Shown: positions 8,679-19,787 of the stretch, piece by piece
How the letters are laid out: every line of letters starts with the position of its first letter
How positions within the stretch are numbered: the stretch's first letter is position 1
DNA from: Candidatus Bathyarchaeota archaeon
Lineage (GTDB): Archaea; Thermoproteota; Bathyarchaeia; Bathyarchaeales; Bathycorpusculaceae
Direction: 5' to 3'
Length of the DNA stretch: 64,000 nt
Assembly: GCA_963715865.1 (NCBI GenBank)
Contig: OY970280.1
Coordinates: 832,001 to 896,000 of the forward strand
Translations under genes and position numbers: made by a program
The notes under the pieces: generated by a model
What the model was told of the DNA's origin: nothing
The model's database searches: none
The model's input: only the letters and a program-made list of their open reading frames with translations

Positions 8679-9440
8679 TTACCCCACGGAGCATGTTAAA
8701 TTCGCTCCAACAGTTATACCGCGTTGATCCTGACAATACATAGAAACAAGAAGAGTGCCGCTTGGCTGATCAGTTTCAGCAATAAACGATACTGCGTATG
8801 TTCCATTGCCAAAATTAGTTATGCTTGGCGAATCAACTTGTATCCAATCAGTTGCATTCTCGAAGTAAAAGGTGAAGTTTTGCGCTAAAGCAGGTTTGCC
8901 TTCGTTGAGTACGTTGACTGTTAAGTTTACTTGCTTAAAGGTGTCGTTAAGTTGCAAATAGTTTCCGCTCAAATTGACCGCGGAAGTTACATTTACCGCG
9001 TATTCCAAATTAGAAGTCGTGGATGAGCCTGAAGAGTTAAAAGCAAAATTGACATAAGCGCTTGAGACCCCATGACCATCCGTGCCCCATGAAATCCAAA
9101 TACCGTTTTGGTAAGGAGCTGCATTCAGCGGAGTGAAATCCATTTTGATTATGGCTTGGTATGAATTAGAAGAGATTGCTGAATTCAATTCGTTTAGGTC
9201 AGCGGTTAAAACGCCTGCGTCGCCGCCGTTGGTTACGTTTGCTAGTGCGCTAATTAGAGTGTTTCTTGTGCTTTGCTTGTACGCCGGGAAAGCGTTGTTT
9301 TCGTCGGTTCCGATTGTCGGTACTTCTTTTTCAGTTTCAATAATGTAGATGGCAGTGGATAGTAAAAGCAACGCTACCAGTAAAGCTGTGATTACAAGCA
9401 CTTGACCTGAGTTGTCGCGTTTTAGGTCGCGTTTTTTCAT
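8679..9440 (-). CDS. Minor pilin-like protein with class III signal peptide
   Basis: Start revised to ATG 9440: MKKRDLKRDNSG|QVLVITALLVALLLL. Confidence 0.75.
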   Translation of the reverse strand: MKKRDLKRDNSGQVLVITALLVALLLLSTAIYIIETEKEVPTIGTDENNAFPAYKQSTRNTLISALANVTNGGDAGVLTADLNELNSAISSNSYQAIIKMDFTPLNAAPYQNGIWISWGTDGHGVSSAYVNFAFNSSGSSTTSNLEYAVNVTSAVNLSGNYLQLNDTFKQVNLTVNVLNEGKPALAQNFTFYFENATDWIQVDSPSITNFGNGTYAVSFIAETDQPSGTLLVSMYCQDQRGITVGANLTCSVG

Positions 9441-9441
9441 G

Positions 9442-9864
9442 TTAATCCACCAGTGACAATTGCAGCCGCAGGATGTAGATTGTGTATGTGCTGTTTTGGC
9501 TTGCGCATAAATAGTCCATTGAAACGATTTTGTCACTTACGGCGCCAGCGTTGCAGATGGGAAAGTCGTTTATGCTATTCATGTCTCTGTCGAATACTGT
9601 TAAGTTAAACCAGACTGTAAGCGGAAGAGCAGATTCAACACAGTCCTTAAGCGCTGTCCAATTTCGGTTATCGACCAGGTTTGCCAAGTGTCCGTTGCTG
9701 TCTAAACTTAACAGAATGTTTTGAGCTGTTGAAACAAGATTTTCTGTTGAATCCTTCAAGCTTGACTGCGCAGGAATAAGCGTTAGACATGACATCAACA
9801 GGACTGAGGCTAAAAATGCTTCTATTATGCGCACTTGCCCTTTCTTGTCTTTTAGCAGTCTCAC
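9442..9864 (-). CDS. Minor pilin-like protein with class III signal peptide
   Basis: MRLLKDKKG|QVRIIEAFLASVLL: KG|Q prepilin cleavage motif plus hydrophobic helix. Confidence 0.8.
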   Translation of the reverse strand: MRLLKDKKGQVRIIEAFLASVLLMSCLTLIPAQSSLKDSTENLVSTAQNILLSLDSNGHLANLVDNRNWTALKDCVESALPLTVWFNLTVFDRDMNSINDFPICNAGAVSDKIVSMDYLCASQNSTYTIYILRLQLSLVD

Positions 9865-10910
9865 GAAACCACGTCTCCCAAACTTACATCAAGCCTATAG
9901 AGTACATCGTTTATTGTAACGACGTAGCTGAAGATGTTTTGTTCTGAACCCTCAAAGTTTGAACCTGCTCTCAATGGAATTTGAGGATAAGCGATCCATT
10001 CTTGAAAATACGTGCCGTTATTGAGACCGCAGATAACCATAATTAAGGGGCTTTTGTCAATTATCTCTGGAATTGGGCATTGAGTGGCGCCTTGCATGTA
10101 AGTGAGATTCTGCTGATACGAGTAAGAGAAGACGTAGCCTTTTTGAACCATTAAGCCAGACGAATTTGATGTGAAACTTAGCGTGTAATTAAGCGGACTT
10201 AAAACTAAAATGCCATTGCTCGGTGCTGATTCCTGCGTGGAATTAAGGAAATTGTAGATTGCATATGAGGTTATCCTGTCGTCAAAAGAGGCTCTTGCGA
10301 ACACAATGAGCATAGCGTTGCCAGTTGCTGCGCTTGGGATTTGAACGGTAACGTAGCCAACTCCAACGTTTGAAGTGCTGTTGGTTATGTCGCTCAGATA
10401 GTTGTTTGCTACAACATAGCAGTGTAGGTTTGCGCTTGTGGGTTCGGAATCAATGCTGGTTGAAATTCCAAAGGTAAAAGATACTTCGCTGCCTACTATC
10501 GTGCTGTTGCTAAGTTGCTCAATATTTATGGACATAACTTGAGAAACCATTATGCCCAAAGCTAAATTGTTTAGCTTAGCGGCGTTGGCCATGTCACCGT
10601 AGGATAATGAGTAGTTGTTTAGATTGTTCAACCTGCTGATTTTATCTATGTCTAGTTCATAGGGGATTGTGGAGGGGCTTGTTGCTAAACCGAAGTCAGC
10701 GGGAACACTGCTGCTGGACCCCCAGTTGATGGGGGCTCCAGAGTTTGTTATGAGGTGGTCGGCTATGGCTTTGAGGTAACTTTCTTTGTTAATGTCTTGT
10801 GTGCTGGTTATTCTGGTTTGCATTGTTGAGCATAGAAAAGCGGTTGCTATCAAAGCTGCGGCTACTATGATTGTGCATGCGAAGAAGGTATCCAAAGAGG
10901 CTGATGGCAA
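9861..10910 (-). CDS. Pilus-associated membrane-anchored protein
   Basis: N-terminal hydrophobic helix, S/T/N-rich beta body, overlaps neighbour within the pilus operon. Confidence 0.7.
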   Translation of the reverse strand: MPSASLDTFFACTIIVAAALIATAFLCSTMQTRITSTQDINKESYLKAIADHLITNSGAPINWGSSSSVPADFGLATSPSTIPYELDIDKISRLNNLNNYSLSYGDMANAAKLNNLALGIMVSQVMSINIEQLSNSTIVGSEVSFTFGISTSIDSEPTSANLHCYVVANNYLSDITNSTSNVGVGYVTVQIPSAATGNAMLIVFARASFDDRITSYAIYNFLNSTQESAPSNGILVLSPLNYTLSFTSNSSGLMVQKGYVFSYSYQQNLTYMQGATQCPIPEIIDKSPLIMVICGLNNGTYFQEWIAYPQIPLRAGSNFEGSEQNIFSYVVTINDVLYRLDVSLGDVVS

Positions 10911-14466: not shown

Positions 14467-15306
14467 TTACCTAATCCACCTCTCGATTGATATGTTGGAA
14501 ATGACGGTCTCTATGTTGATTATTGCGCCTTCAGGTGTGCTTGAAATCGGAACTGAAACGCTTCCGTTAGCGCCATCCAATTGTGAAGTTATCGCTAAGT
14601 TTTCAGGTTGATAGGAAACTTGGTAAGTTTCAGTGGTTAATTGTGTGCTTGTGCAGGAAATTTTTAGGGGAAGCTCGCCGTGTAATGCTATGGTGTCTGA
14701 AGAGTTCAAGTTAACTATGTAGATGCGAATTTCGGTGACGGCTTTACCGTTTTCCAATCCTGCAGTCGCATATGACACTGTTGGCCGATACCTCAACTGG
14801 ATTTCAGGCCCTTGGTTGCCGTTTGCTACATAAAGCTGACTTAGTGAGGAGCCGCTTTGATTGGTTATTGTTTGGCTGTCGCCTTTTAGGTAAAGTCCAG
14901 TTGCTAATGAGCCTAAATATGGAAGTTCATATGTGACTTCGCCTACCGATGAGTTAAAGATAGGTTCTTCAATGCTTGAGTTGTCATTGATGCTGATTGT
15001 TAGAACATTGCTGGTTGGCTGAATGTTTGTTAATCCGCCTGAATCAGTCAAGTCAAACGTAGCTGAGGAGCCAGGCTGCCATAAAGTTGAAAGAATAACA
15101 TCGTCCAGAGATAGAAAGTTTTGTTTGGCTGTGGAAACTTTGAGAGTTTCGCTTTGCGTATTGAGTCTTTCAACTGAAAAGTAATAGGTAACTGAAATGA
15201 TGCCTAGCGTCGACACTAAAAGTATCAAGAATGTAACGGGTAAAGCTAAAGCAACTTTAGATCGAACAAACCCTCTGAAGAGTCGATTATGCAAGACTGC
15301 GGCCAA
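14467..15306 (-). CDS. Pilin-like protein with probable class III signal peptide
   Basis: 'RSKVA|LALPVTFLILLVSTLGII' followed by S/T/N-rich beta domain. Confidence 0.72.
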   Translation of the reverse strand: MAAVLHNRLFRGFVRSKVALALPVTFLILLVSTLGIISVTYYFSVERLNTQSETLKVSTAKQNFLSLDDVILSTLWQPGSSATFDLTDSGGLTNIQPTSNVLTISINDNSSIEEPIFNSSVGEVTYELPYLGSLATGLYLKGDSQTITNQSGSSLSQLYVANGNQGPEIQLRYRPTVSYATAGLENGKAVTEIRIYIVNLNSSDTIALHGELPLKISCTSTQLTTETYQVSYQPENLAITSQLDGANGSVSVPISSTPEGAIINIETVISNISIERWIR

Positions 15307-15538: not shown

Positions 15539-16144
15539 TTATGCTGGTGCTACGTACGCTTGGACGTTTGCCTCTTGATAGTACATCGCTTGCGAAGTGA
15601 ACACCGTTATTCCAACAGTTAAGCCTATGTCATTAATGGTGACGCTATCTGGGCCTACAACGTAAACAACCATGCTATCGCCTGATTTCAATGTTACGTC
15701 GCCTGAAGCTACTGCCAATGTCATACCCGTTTTTATAGTATCTGCAGTTGTTAAAATAGCAACGGCATTGTTGGTTGTTCCATCTGTTCCCGGTACGTAT
15801 ACGAGGTCAGCAGTTACTGAGCCAACAGCAGAATAGACCTGAGCCCAGGGTGATGCTTGTCCTCGAACAGTGATTTTATTTATAACTACGTCTCGACCAC
15901 CAGTGTTAATGATTACAAAAGCCGCCTCAGCGGGATATTGACCATCGATTGCGCTTGCGGATTGTGGACACCATACGTGTAGCATTTGCATGGTTAAGCT
16001 TTCTTCTTGAACTCGGGTGCTGGTAACGTTGATAGCAAAGTAAGTAACGACGCCTGCGAGAAGCACTGAAACCACCAGAATAATCAGCGTAGTAACGACT
16101 GTACTTAGAGCCAAACGATTCTTCAGTATATTCTTCATTTTCAT
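15539..16144 (-). CDS. Major archaeal type IV pilin, paralogue 1
   Basis: Start revised to ATG 16144: MKMKNILKNRLA|LSTVVTTLIILVVSVLLAGVV; 'NTGGRD' block. Confidence 0.88.
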   Translation of the reverse strand: MKMKNILKNRLALSTVVTTLIILVVSVLLAGVVTYFAINVTSTRVQEESLTMQMLHVWCPQSASAIDGQYPAEAAFVIINTGGRDVVINKITVRGQASPWAQVYSAVGSVTADLVYVPGTDGTTNNAVAILTTADTIKTGMTLAVASGDVTLKSGDSMVVYVVGPDSVTINDIGLTVGITVFTSQAMYYQEANVQAYVAPA

Positions 16145-16145
16145 T

Positions 16146-16201
16146 TTTTGTTTCACTGAAAAACCAATCAGCAAATTTTAGATAAGTAAACTTGTGCATA
16201 C
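16146..16201 (-). promoter_or_regulatory. Upstream region duplicated in front of pilins 1 and 2 (second copy 16930-16984)
   Basis: Shared CACTGAAAAACCAATCA.CAAATTT.AGATAAGTAAACTTGTGC.TAC. Confidence 0.7.
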
Positions 16202-16355
16202 AAAAAAATACACATAAACAAGAACCAAGCCAAAAAAATAATAATTTATTTTCTTAAACGAAAAAACTTATTTTTTCAAAAAGAAAAAAAGAAGAGAGGG
16301 GGATTTTTGTGGGGGGTTTTAATGAGCTTTTATTGACCGCTGCCTTCTGCTATTA

Positions 16356-16928
16356 TCAGCTTGCTTGGACGTTGGCTTCTTGGTAGTACATCGCTTGCGA
16401 AGTGAACACAGTTATTCCAACAGTTAAGCCTATGTCATTAATGGTGACGCTATCTGGGCCTACAATGTAAACAACCATGCTAGCGCCTGATTGCAACGTT
16501 ATGTCGCCTGAAGCTGGTGTCAATGCGACATTATGACCTGAGGTACCGTCTACAGCGAGGGCAGATGCAGGAGCATCGGAATCTATGTATGCAAGGTCTT
16601 CACTTACGGTATGAGTTGCGACACCAGCAAAGACTGTTGCACCATCCCAAGCTGCTGCTTGTCCTCGAACAGTGATTTTATTTATAACTACGTCTCGACC
16701 GCCAGTGTTAATCATCAAAAATGCCGCTTCACCTCTACTATTAGCTGAATCGTACCATACGTGTAGTTTTGTTAATTGTAGGCTTTCTTCTTGAACGCGG
16801 GTGCTGGTAACGTTGATAGCAAAGTAAGTAACGACGCCTGCGAGAAGCACTGAAACCACCAGAATAATCAGCGTAGTAACGACTGTACTTAGAGCCAAAC
16901 GATTCTTCAGTATATTCTTCATTTTCAT
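16356..16928 (-). CDS. Major archaeal type IV pilin, paralogue 2
   Basis: Start revised to ATG 16928; 16798-16929 is identical to 16014-16145 of paralogue 1. Confidence 0.88.
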   Translation of the reverse strand: MKMKNILKNRLALSTVVTTLIILVVSVLLAGVVTYFAINVTSTRVQEESLQLTKLHVWYDSANSRGEAAFLMINTGGRDVVINKITVRGQAAAWDGATVFAGVATHTVSEDLAYIDSDAPASALAVDGTSGHNVALTPASGDITLQSGASMVVYIVGPDSVTINDIGLTVGITVFTSQAMYYQEANVQAS

Positions 16929-17058
16929 TCTTAATTCACTGAAAAACCAATCAACAAATTTAAGATAAGTAAACTTGTGCGTACGAAAAACGACACCTAA
17001 CAAAAAAGAAACAAAAAAGAAAGGATCGGAGTTTGTTTAACTTTACCCTTTTACGGGC

Positions 17059-17742
17059 CTAGACTGCTGGAGTTACTGGAGCGTATGCTTGAACGTTGGA
17101 TTCTACGTAGTACATTGCTTGCGCCGTGTAGAGCGTTAGGCTTACGGTTAAGCCGATGTCGTTTATGGTGATGCTGTCAGGGTTTATCACGTAAATTAGC
17201 ATTGTGTAGCCTGATCTTAGAACCAGGTCTGTTGCGGCGTAATTGAACGTATATGGAGTTCCGGGTACTGCGTCGTCAGGATTTAGAGATAAGGACTGCG
17301 TTGGTTTCACGGGTGGCGTTCCGGCTGGGGCGGTTTCGGCTAACATACCTTTCTGGAAGTACATGTCTGTGGATACAGGTTGGTTTGTTATCGAATAGAC
17401 TATGAATTGCGTATCCAGTGCTTCTAACCCAGATGTCCACGGGCAGTCTTGGCCTCTTACGGCTATCTTATTGATGACGACGTCTCTACCGCCAGTGTTA
17501 ACGACCCTTACTGAAGCCATCGAGTAGGTCGGGTCTCCTGGAGCGGCTGCAGGGTTGAGCCATACGTGAGAGCTGGTCATGGAAAGGCTTTCTTCTTGGA
17601 CTCTTGTGCTGACGACGTTTATGGCGAAGTAGGTGACTACGCTTGCCAGTAGCACTGAGATGACTAGGATAATGAGCGTTGTTACGACCGTGCTGAGAGC
17701 ATACTTGTTTTTTAATAATTTATGGAAAGAACTGTAATTCAA
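17059..17742 (-). CDS. Major archaeal type IV pilin, paralogue 3
   Basis: The GTG at 17754 lies inside the SD GGAGGTGA, so TTG 17742 is the likelier start; NKYA|LSTVVTTLIIL, same conserved blocks. Confidence 0.86.
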   Translation of the reverse strand: MNYSSFHKLLKNKYALSTVVTTLIILVISVLLASVVTYFAINVVSTRVQEESLSMTSSHVWLNPAAAPGDPTYSMASVRVVNTGGRDVVINKIAVRGQDCPWTSGLEALDTQFIVYSITNQPVSTDMYFQKGMLAETAPAGTPPVKPTQSLSLNPDDAVPGTPYTFNYAATDLVLRSGYTMLIYVINPDSITINDIGLTVSLTLYTAQAMYYVESNVQAYAPVTPAV

Positions 17743-17853
17743 TGTATTTTTCACCTCCTGCTTTCGGGGATGATTTGATGAGTTGCTGGAAGCTTTGGGG
17801 TTGTTTTCATGTTCGACATGTCCCTTATCTTTGAAATAGCAGTACGGGTTTTT

Positions 17854-18113: not shown

Positions 18114-19787
18114 TTGTCCACCACCCGAATATATAGCGCTTGCAGGCTGGTAGCCATGCATCTGAAAATCAACCCCCACACAAAAACCCTATCACTGGTT
18201 ACAATAGTAGTGTTAATAATCAGTCCCTTATTCATGGCTACAGCCTTCAGCATCCAATTAACTACCACTTCAGAATACACCAACTACGTACACAACTACG
18301 TCAACTCACCTCAAGGAAACTACACTTACATTGAAAAACCAATCTTCCCAGTGCTAATTAACAATTCTCAAATACAAATCGGCCAAAACTGGACCATCAT
18401 CTGCCCTCTACAAGAGGGCCATAACTACCACATTTACTGTTATGGAGCATGGATAAATACCTCATCCGCGGCAAAAACAGACTACAACATCTACGTCTAT
18501 GACCCACAGGGAAACTTGGAGAGTTCACACACTGAATCAGCTGGTCTTCCAGAACACTTAGGTACAACAACTGATGACGCGCTTTTTACGCCGGTGCAGT
18601 CAGGCAACTACTCGTTTGTTATAGTGAATAATCCAGTTGATAGCGCAGGTGCTCAGCAGGCGACTTTTATGATAATTGAAAATCTTGAATGCGACAAATG
18701 GTACACGAGTTACGTCGAAGGCACAATTGATAATAATTCAAGTTTCTACACAAACTGGGCGTACGAGTTCGTAACTAACGCGTCATATGTTGAATTGTAC
18801 ATAAAAGTTCCAGAAACGCTCGACATGTATGAAGCTAGGCTTTACTTGATGAATAACGCTAATTCTTCAAGCTTAAACTCTTATCCACTGCCTTGGGAAC
18901 CAGGCTTGTACGGCAACTTAAGCAGTCCTGTCGGCGGCTACAACTTTGAAAGCGAAGCCTACAGAGGTGTAGCCTACGCAAGCTGTGAACATATGGGTCA
19001 AGCGATGTTTCTAAATTACACGTCGCCTAAGAATAATGGAACAAATCTCTATCATTTAGCGCTCATCGGTGAAGTAGGTTCAGGGAATATAGAGTTCATG
19101 TTGAAGACTCATTTTGAAAATGCTTCCTTGATACCCTTAACTATTCCAAGAAGAGTCATTCCTGAAAATCAAACTGAACTCGCCTTCACCTCAAACAACA
19201 CTAATTTGGAGACGGCTCAACTGTCATACACTACCAATAATTGGACAGATATTAATACCGTTGATATGGAAGTCAGCAACCAAACATGCAATGCTACGAT
19301 TCCAGGCCAAAATGCAGGGTCATTAGTGCAATATAAAATTCAAGCAATTGACGTTCTAAAAAATAGCTTGAAAGCAGCAGGCAACTATACTGTAAAGGCG
19401 CCGTCAACTCTTAACATTACTGCAGTTGAAGAAAAAATAGGCCTTGGCGAAAACATCACAATTGCTGGAGTTCTGACTCCAAACGATAATTATTCTAGAG
19501 TTAATGTGCAGTTCAGCAGCATCAACTCCACCCAAACGGTAAATTGCACTGTGAACAGTAATGGTACTTTTGTTGCAACTTTCAAACCGGGCTCTTCTGG
19601 ACTTTGGGCTGTTAGTGCAACTTCGCCTGAAACCCAAACGTCTTACAGGTGCGATAGCCAAGAGTTAACGGTAACGGTGACCGAGCCGCCAATTTACGTT
19701 AAGTATTCTCTTTTTATTATTGCTGGGCTTGTTGCTGCTTTTGCGGTTGGTGGAGTGGTTTACTTTTTAAAGTTCAGAGAAAAATGA
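18114..19787 (+). CDS. Secreted, C-terminally anchored surface protein (Ig/FnIII-like modules)
   Basis: N-terminal hydrophobic segment, many N-x-S/T sequons, C-terminal TM plus KFREK; true start may be ATG 18156. Confidence 0.82.
   Translation: MSTTRIYSACRLVAMHLKINPHTKTLSLVTIVVLIISPLFMATAFSIQLTTTSEYTNYVHNYVNSPQGNYTYIEKPIFPVLINNSQIQIGQNWTIICPLQEGHNYHIYCYGAWINTSSAAKTDYNIYVYDPQGNLESSHTESAGLPEHLGTTTDDALFTPVQSGNYSFVIVNNPVDSAGAQQATFMIIENLECDKWYTSYVEGTIDNNSSFYTNWAYEFVTNASYVELYIKVPETLDMYEARLYLMNNANSSSLNSYPLPWEPGLYGNLSSPVGGYNFESEAYRGVAYASCEHMGQAMFLNYTSPKNNGTNLYHLALIGEVGSGNIEFMLKTHFENASLIPLTIPRRVIPENQTELAFTSNNTNLETAQLSYTTNNWTDINTVDMEVSNQTCNATIPGQNAGSLVQYKIQAIDVLKNSLKAAGNYTVKAPSTLNITAVEEKIGLGENITIAGVLTPNDNYSRVNVQFSSINSTQTVNCTVNSNGTFVATFKPGSSGLWAVSATSPETQTSYRCDSQELTVTVTEPPIYVKYSLFIIAGLVAAFAVGGVVYFLKFREK

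Follow-up and report, generated by a model that had tools for sequence, protein, structure and literature searches.

The tandem genes flaA and flaB of Campylobacter have been described as evolving in concert (Meinersmann and Hiett 2000) and as recombining within the genome (Wassenaar 1995, Harrington 1997), as cited in PMC5126078, and by analogy they are the closest counterpart of the locus described here. This locus was found in a window of 64,000 nucleotides (nt), namely positions 832,001 to 896,000 of contig OY970280.1 (forward strand, assembly GCA_963715865.1) of a Candidatus Bathyarchaeota archaeon, whose genome, labelled G000, came from peat and is complete at 2.35 Mb. According to open reading frame (ORF) analysis, three complete tandem type IV pilin genes, pil1, pil2 and pil3, occupy positions 15539-17754 of this window on the minus strand. 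Based on comparisons with the loci and contigs of relatives, which are labelled L with a number, pil1 and pil2 are very probably old paralogues, the core-forming parts of which were repeatedly homogenised by gene conversion, with the loops being stably inherited. The process is ordinary evolution and not programmed switching; it is a known process, and no new mechanism is involved.

As described in PMC5126078, flaA and flaB share with pil1 and pil2 the arrangement of two tandem, separately promoted filament-subunit genes that are kept partly alike by intragenomic recombination. The same source reports that the differences between flaA and flaB concentrate in exposed or glycosylated parts, and that an anti-phage role was proposed. 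However, flaA/flaB as described there is a bacterial flagellin pair, whereas the present genes encode an archaeal pilin, with three tracts split by two loop islands and a third paralogue outside the exchange. Recombination via a conserved block was also described for the tandem lpl paralogue cluster of Staphylococcus aureus (Tsuru and Kobayashi 2008, PMC2568036). Similar to the pilin genes, lpl genes are tandem surface-protein paralogues with a conserved block as the recombination site; their variable flanks have incongruent phylogenies, and the copy number varies between strains. The organism and the protein family differ, and the layout is inverted: one central conserved block lies between two variable flanks in lpl, whereas three conserved blocks enclose two variable ones here.

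In the case of Haloferax volcanii, PilA1-6 have a conserved H-domain and varied outer parts, and each of them can be the major pilin (PMC4371748). They resemble the present pilins in their near-identical N-terminal hydrophobic core and different C-terminal parts, and subsets of them are expressed by condition. Unlike pil1 and pil2, the PilA genes are dispersed and unlinked to pilB/pilC, and the review treats the H-domain as conserved in the protein sequence; pil1 and pil2 also share two further blocks, internal and C-terminal. No report of DNA-level homogenisation of the H. volcanii PilA genes was found in the literature searched. Long-lasting recurrent concerted evolution was surveyed by Wang and Chen (2018, PMC6053082) using the criterion that paralogues are closer to each other than to orthologues. 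The same relation was found here in the constant blocks, and it recurs in several lineages; however, the survey concerned whole genes of core pathways, whereas the present case would be segmental conversion within a surface-filament gene. In pilE/pilS of Neisseria gonorrhoeae (PMC13321361), as in the present genes, conserved blocks flank variable segments and recombination proceeds via the conserved blocks. Unlike pilE/pilS, the present locus showed no silent donors, no single expression locus, and no sign of high-frequency switching. The literature searched yielded no directly relevant paper on the pili of Bathyarchaeia, nor any on archaellins or type IV pilins that undergo gene conversion or evolve in concert.

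For archaeal type IV pilins, the locus is a clean, statistically supported case of concerted evolution that is segmental, and with the orthologues at hand conversion can be distinguished from recent duplication. This pilin family is uncharacterised and widespread in Bathyarchaeia, which are globally abundant and essentially uncultured. The block map can guide structural and functional work, as it places near-absolute constraint on the N-terminal helix and on two of the strand blocks, and the isoform differences in two loops.

Constant and variable blocks of pil1 and pil2

The shared tracts were defined by windows of at least 85% identity. The genes and their blocks, all on the minus strand, were as follows.

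15539..16144, minus strand: pil1, ORF of 201 aa, predicted type IV pilin precursor (MKMKNILKNRLA/LSTVV..., the slash marking the predicted cleavage site)
16356..16928, minus strand: pil2, ORF of 190 aa, predicted type IV pilin precursor, very probably an old paralogue of pil1
17059..17742, minus strand: pil3, 227 aa from a TTG at 17742; the ORF is open to a GTG at 17754
pil1 15990..16213 and pil2 16775..16996, minus strand: tract 1, comprising the upstream element, signal peptide and N-terminal helix (C1); 222 aligned positions, 12 mismatches
pil1 15840..15919 and pil2 16638-16721, minus strand: tract 2 (C2, ..AAF.INTGGRDVVINKITVRGQ); 80 aligned positions, 8 mismatches
pil1 15555..15710 and pil2 16361-16515, minus strand: tract 3 (C3, SGD.TL...QAMYYQEANVQA); 155 aligned positions, 10 mismatches
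pil1 15926..15994 (residues 51-73) and pil2 16728-16778 (residues 51-67), minus strand: variable segment V1, 23 and 17 codons
pil1 15707..15856 (residues 97-146) and pil2 16512-16658 (residues 91-139), minus strand: variable segment V2, 50 and 49 codons

Tract 1 spans approximately 69 nt upstream and approximately 51 codons. It contains a block that is identical at 132 of 132 bases (16014-16145 and 16798-16929), and a second block (15854-15910 and 16656-16712) had one mismatch in 57 bases. Both blocks had been claimed in a first-pass annotation made from the letters alone, and both were exactly as claimed there; the near-identical 3' block and the duplicated upstream region that it also described correspond to tract 3 and tract 1. 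Its description of two intervening segments that differ in length and have diverged likewise agreed with V1 and V2, in which pil1 and pil2 differed at 26/51 and 67/135 nt, respectively, i.e. approximately half of the alignable bases. The mosaic of near-identical and diverged segments within one gene pair was observed directly.

Codons that encode the same residue in both genes were then compared. Between pil1 and pil2, 10 of 112 such codons differed in the constant blocks and 7 of 17 in the variable blocks (Fisher p=0.0018). In the case of C1, the differing same-residue codons amounted to 2/47 between pil1 and pil2, 6-8 of 45-46 between orthologues, and 25/39 between pil3 and pil1. Since pil3 differs at 25 of 39, the synonymous sites of C1 are free to vary, and the identity of pil1 and pil2 therefore cannot be put down to constraint on the protein or on its codons. 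Moreover, pil3 keeps the same protein blocks, and its C1 was 43/144 nt away from pil1/pil2 and 16/144 nt away from its orthologue L035_p3. The claim that the third pilin had been recoded at the DNA level was thus borne out, and pil3 belongs to a separate, non-homogenised paralogue class.

Histories of the loops and constant blocks in related genomes

One syntenic relative, L035, is a 224-kb metagenome contig that carries the same divergent 557-aa gene, four pilin genes in the order p3-p2-p1a-p1b, and then, as in G000, two accessory genes followed by that of the ATPase. L035_p2 is the syntenic orthologue of pil2 (83% identical), and the flanking genes of G000 and L035 were separated by a synonymous divergence (dS) of 0.40-0.58. 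As each paralogue has its own syntenic orthologue in L035, the duplication is older than the species split.

The loops followed this orthology. On comparing pil2 with L035_p2, 8/51 nt differed in V1 and 28/141 nt in V2, and V1 of pil1 differed from its orthologue at 12/69 nt. The V1 and V2 loops of pil1, pil2 and pil3 were each matched by an orthologue in the relative at a dS of approximately 0.5. In C1, the relation was the reverse: pil1 and pil2 differed at 2/144 nt, and each differed from its own orthologue at 10/144 nt. In a third contig, L037, p2 and p1 differed at 1/144 nt of C1, and L037_p2 and G000_pil2 at 12/144 nt. The maximum-likelihood tree of the constant blocks joined pil1 and pil2 (97/93*), and grouping pil2 with its orthologues was rejected by the approximately unbiased (AU) test (p=0.0145). 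In the tree of the variable blocks, pil2 grouped with its orthologues (85/100), and a pil1+pil2 clade was rejected (AU p=0.0006, log-likelihood difference 92). When 60-nt windows were slid along the gene, the sequence nearest to pil2 was the paralogue, orthologue, paralogue, orthologue, and paralogue in succession.

The synonymous divergences gave the same picture. Between pil1 and pil2, dS was 0.13 in the constant blocks overall (C1 0.05, C2 0.19, C3 0.19) and 0.86 in the variable blocks. The constant-block value of 0.13 for the paralogues compares with 0.30-0.44 for the orthologues, and the C3 value of 0.19 with 0.36-0.52. Paralogues were consequently closer to each other than to orthologues in the constant blocks only. 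This block-wise phylogenetic incongruence against syntenic orthologues supports the gene conversion of constant blocks that the first-pass annotation had proposed. In the case of C2, the paralogue dS was 0.19 in G000 and 1.0-1.5 in L035 and L037; because of these high values in the relatives, C2 is taken to have been converted in the G000 lineage only. The homogenisation of C2 here and not in L035 or L037 implies that the tracts are separate events that differ between lineages.

The same data bear on an explanation without recombination, in which the genes were duplicated recently and simply, and the loops then diverged faster by point mutation under positive selection or local hypermutation. 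Most aligned V codons of pil1 and pil2 do differ non-synonymously, and across the family constraint is weakest in the loops. However, a pil1+pil2 clade in the variable blocks was rejected as stated above, dS differed between 0.86 and 0.13 within one gene pair, and each V had a close orthologue elsewhere. Moreover, the ratio of non-synonymous to synonymous divergence (dN/dS) between orthologues was 0.27-0.56 in the V blocks, i.e. below 1, compared with 0.02-0.2 for the constant blocks. Among the locus genes scanned against Pfam, none was recognised as a reverse transcriptase or similar mutator gene. This explanation is accordingly very unlikely. Uniform divergence after a simple duplication, which the first-pass annotation had named as the outcome that would speak against its idea, was rejected, although the lack of extra partial copies that it had listed with this outcome was indeed found.

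The term 'hypervariable', which had been applied to the loops, was appropriate across the family, in which the mean column entropy was 1.9-2.5 bits in V1/V2 and 0.3-0.7 bits in the constant blocks, but not between close orthologues. Judged from the substitution ratios, the loops are relaxed, possibly with some diversifying sites, and without rapid turnover.

Whether the locus could be a programmed variation system of the Neisseria pilE/pilS type, in which a single gene is expressed and frequently receives loop cassettes from the other copies, was also considered. The layout of conserved and variable blocks is similar, and the first-pass annotation had argued from the premise that archaeal pili are virus receptors. 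However, when the whole 2.35-Mb genome was searched for further pilin copies with six-frame protein comparison and word-7 blastn, only the three full genes and one unrelated pilin (28% identity) were obtained, and there were no silent, truncated or promoterless copies. All copies had a start codon, a signal peptide, a conserved upstream element, and a T-rich stretch after the gene. The loops were stable over a dS of approximately 0.5, and it was the conserved parts that were exchanged while the loops stayed, which is the reverse of pilS-to-pilE transfer. The proposal of such a variation system was thus not upheld by three intact genes with stable loops and a V dN/dS below 1, and it is extremely improbable.

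Segmental gene conversion between pil1 and pil2 would proceed as follows. The duplication that produced the two genes precedes the split from the related species, and homologous recombination between the tandem copies would repeatedly overwrite three stretches with the sequence of the other copy. C1 consists of the promoter-proximal leader together with the signal peptide and the N-terminal helix, C2 is the strand block NTGGRD...RGQ, and C3 comprises the C-terminal strands. The conversion would be non-reciprocal, possibly with unequal crossing-over. Its tracts may end at V1 and V2 through heterology, which would block conversion, or through selection against convertants that lost their loop; V1 and V2 would thereby retain separate, orthologue-like histories. 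The DNA of pil3 (approximately 70% identity in C1) would be too diverged to take part in the exchange. The outcome would be isoforms with near-identical filament-core and assembly surfaces and differing decorated loops, which may have a role in adhesion specificity or virus avoidance.

Recurrence of the mosaic in Bathyarchaeia

To place the locus among its relatives, 191 pilin genes from 113 loci were surveyed, and 2215 between-locus pairs were sampled. Ten within-locus pairs from 7 loci had at most 8 differences in the 111 helix-coding nt of C1, with the rest of the protein being 53-79% identical; a C1 difference as low was found in 6 of the 2215 between-locus pairs. From these comparisons, the same mosaic is recognised in at least six other Bathyarchaeia loci. 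Moreover, tandem pilin duplicates with 99-100% identity were found in eight loci (L080, L009, L011, L060, L064, L067, L069, and L074). One of them, L080:3530-4750, is from Ca. Bathyarchaeum tardum M17C-01 (CP122380.1) and carries an exact tandem pilin duplicate. Such sequences indicate frequent recent duplication or whole-gene conversion in pilin arrays.

The sharpest constant/variable layout in the family was found at L075:398-2300 (JAOZIC010000209.1, Bathyarchaeota isolate DYS_4), which has three tandem pilin genes. Approximately 80 N-terminal codons and approximately 45 codons at the C-terminal end are base-identical in these copies, whose differences lie almost entirely in a V2 of approximately 45 codons. 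On the sequences of this locus, import of a foreign V2 or very fast V2 change could not be separated from conversion of the flanks (AU p=0.116).

Across proteins, the identities of V1 and V2 were partly coupled (r=0.52), and discordant pairs were observed. V2 was 100% and V1 50% identical in P0045/P0059, V2 was 90% and V1 35% identical in P0005/P0013, and V1 was 100% and V2 58% identical in P0004/P0006; P0013 is an apparent V1/V2 chimera. These discordant pairs suggest that recombination via the constant blocks also reshuffles loops on an evolutionary time scale. Accordingly, the cassette exchange proposed in the first-pass annotation did not apply to pil1, pil2 and pil3, where the loops stay, but found a counterpart in module mosaics at the level of the family.

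The partial uncoupling of V1 and V2 in the three discordant pairs, together with V2 types common to lineages with different flanks and the identity of the L075 copies outside V2, would also be expected if loops were imported. In that case, pil1 and pil2 would be recent duplicates, and their V1 and V2 would have been replaced by those of diverged alleles in other strains or species, through allelic or lateral cassette exchange with the constant blocks as crossover sites. However, a relative at a dS of approximately 0.5 has the p3-p2-p1 order with matching V1 and V2 at each position, and this disfavours loop import because the same loops would need independent placement in the same genes in each lineage. 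Furthermore, the extent of the tracts varies by lineage, with C2 shared here and not in L035 or L037, which fits better with repeated local conversion. Loop import is therefore considered unlikely as the origin of the pil1/pil2 mosaic.

Some points weigh against repeated segmental conversion, although it is the preferred reading. Two or three genomes are too few for reading the direction and number of conversion events. With 363 nt overall, the constant blocks are short, and the AU p value obtained with them is modest (0.0145). In addition, monophyly of V2 in L075 was not rejected (AU p=0.116).

A wider reading is that the arrays of Bathyarchaeia are a standing repertoire of isoforms. Conversion and unequal crossing-over would keep the cores interchangeable, and ancient V2 (and V1) types would be kept diverse and reshuffled between copies and lineages by balancing selection, e.g. 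from pilus-binding viruses. This reading is tentative and rather doubtful at present. If true, an uncultured class of archaea would possess a counterpart of antigenic variation that is not programmed and acts on an evolutionary scale.

Two irregular arrays were also observed. In L026 (G010:C4:33622-36801), which is from the same genus, the pilin array is interrupted by in-frame stops, which close the open frames after 48-54 mature residues, and several fragments match only parts of pil1. This array appears to be decayed. In L054:3501-4052 (P0049), V1 and the constant blocks are normal, and V2 resembles out-of-frame sequence (HLHRSNQYVNSQRSHLSMQ), which is probably due to a frameshift pair or an assembly error.

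Pilin identity and the surrounding pilus locus

The assignment of the three proteins to type IV pilins was examined by profile, signal peptide and fold. The Pfam profile Pilin_N (PF07790), with a cut-off of 25.2 bits, gave 26.0 bits for pil2, 21.5 bits for pil1 and 20.0 bits for pil3, and precomputed PF07790 matches exist on many close homologues. Each protein has a short basic N-terminus, followed by A/LSTVVTTLIILVVSVLLAGVVTYFAINVTSTRVQEES, an extremely conserved hydrophobic helix. The class III signal rule consists of a short charged N-terminus and G, A or S at position -1 of the peptidase site before the hydrophobic H-domain (PMC4371748). The present proteins conform to it with MKMKNILKNRLA/LSTVVTTLIILVVSVLLAGVV..., at which cleavage would be expected, and the canonical KKG/LSTV is present in more distant relatives. 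The family is large, with >3,700 members at E<=1e-20, and was found in 16 of the 24 genomes searched within the genus; beyond it, several further families of the order also have members.

The AlphaFold2 model of pil1, built with 113 homologues, had a mean predicted local distance difference test (pLDDT) score of 86.8 and consisted of a helix (residues 2-42) and 8 strands in a beta-sandwich. The top-ranked Foldseek matches were 6w8u, 6w8x, 6nav, and 8tib, which are archaeal type IV pili. With VIA, the model aligned to 6w8u with Z 9.6 (root-mean-square deviation 5.9, 129 aligned), to 8fk7 with Z 8.6, and to 6w8x and 8q30 with Z 8.2. Solved archaellins aligned with Z 6.3-8.4, which is below the Z 9.6 of the best pilus match. 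An archaellin identity was likewise not borne out by the profile PF01917, which matched none of the three proteins with an E of 0.1 or less; no search for archaellum accessory genes was made. On profile and model evidence, the locus is a type IV pilus locus with three pilin paralogues, for which filament assembly is predicted.

In the pil1 model, V1 forms the end of the first strand and a loop, and V2 forms a short strand followed by approximately 40 residues of coil (pLDDT 72-76). Solved archaeal pilins (131-140 residues) align to only 126-129 of the approximately 186 mature residues of pil1, and V2 therefore fits a decoration on the beta-sandwich in this model. Both loops may be exposed on the filament surface.

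The elements upstream of the genes were read from conserved alignments, on which all statements about promoters, Shine-Dalgarno (SD) sites and terminators are based. An element of approximately 70 nt (…GCACAAGTTTACTTATCT…TTTTTC..AGTGAAA…ATG) was found at 16145-16213 and 16929-16996, and it precedes every gene of the pil1/pil2 class in several genomes (upstream regions of L033-L039). The leader of the pil3 class is different but conserved, with a TTTATAAG box approximately 90 nt upstream and GGAGGTGA. A T-rich stretch follows each of the three pilin genes. Because of the two leader classes and these T-rich stretches, pil1, pil2 and pil3 are probably separate transcription units under two kinds of control. 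The GTG at 17754, which is the mechanical ORF start of pil3, falls within the SD-like site GGAGGTGA (17742-17765). The most likely start is the TTG at 17742 (MNYSSFHKLL...), since it lies 7 nt after GGAGGTGA and matches the ATG-initiated orthologues.

The pilin array lies upstream of two pilin-like genes, which are followed by genes for a PilB-type ATPase and then a PilC-type membrane protein.

14467..15306, minus strand: candidate minor pilin or pilus accessory protein, 279 aa, with an N-terminal hydrophobic segment
14022..14465, minus strand: candidate minor pilin or accessory protein, 147 aa, with an N-terminal hydrophobic segment
12436..14025, minus strand: predicted PilB/FlaI-type assembly ATPase (Pfam T2SSE, E=7.6e-33), 91% identical in L035
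10927..12432, minus strand: predicted PilC/TadC-type membrane platform protein (Pfam T2SSF, E=9.9e-20, two stretches)

The 279-aa protein had no Pfam match and is syntenic in L034, L035, L036, and L044 at 76-81% identity. A Peptidase_A24 (PibD-like) gene was found elsewhere in the genome (46.2 bits, genome position 1160072-1160413), and the assembly gene set of PilB-type ATPase, PilC-type protein and prepilin peptidase is complete in this genome.

On the other side of the array, a 557-aa protein is encoded by a divergently transcribed gene at 18114-19787 (plus strand). It has a C-terminal hydrophobic anchor and many N-x-S/T sites and showed no significant Pfam match. Its gene keeps its position beside the pilin array in L035 (57-70% identity), and the product is possibly a surface protein with a functional link to the pilus locus. 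Three ORFs of 349, 140 and 285 aa without a Pfam match were observed at 8679-10910 (minus strand), downstream of the PilC-type gene, and these may be further components of the pilus operon.

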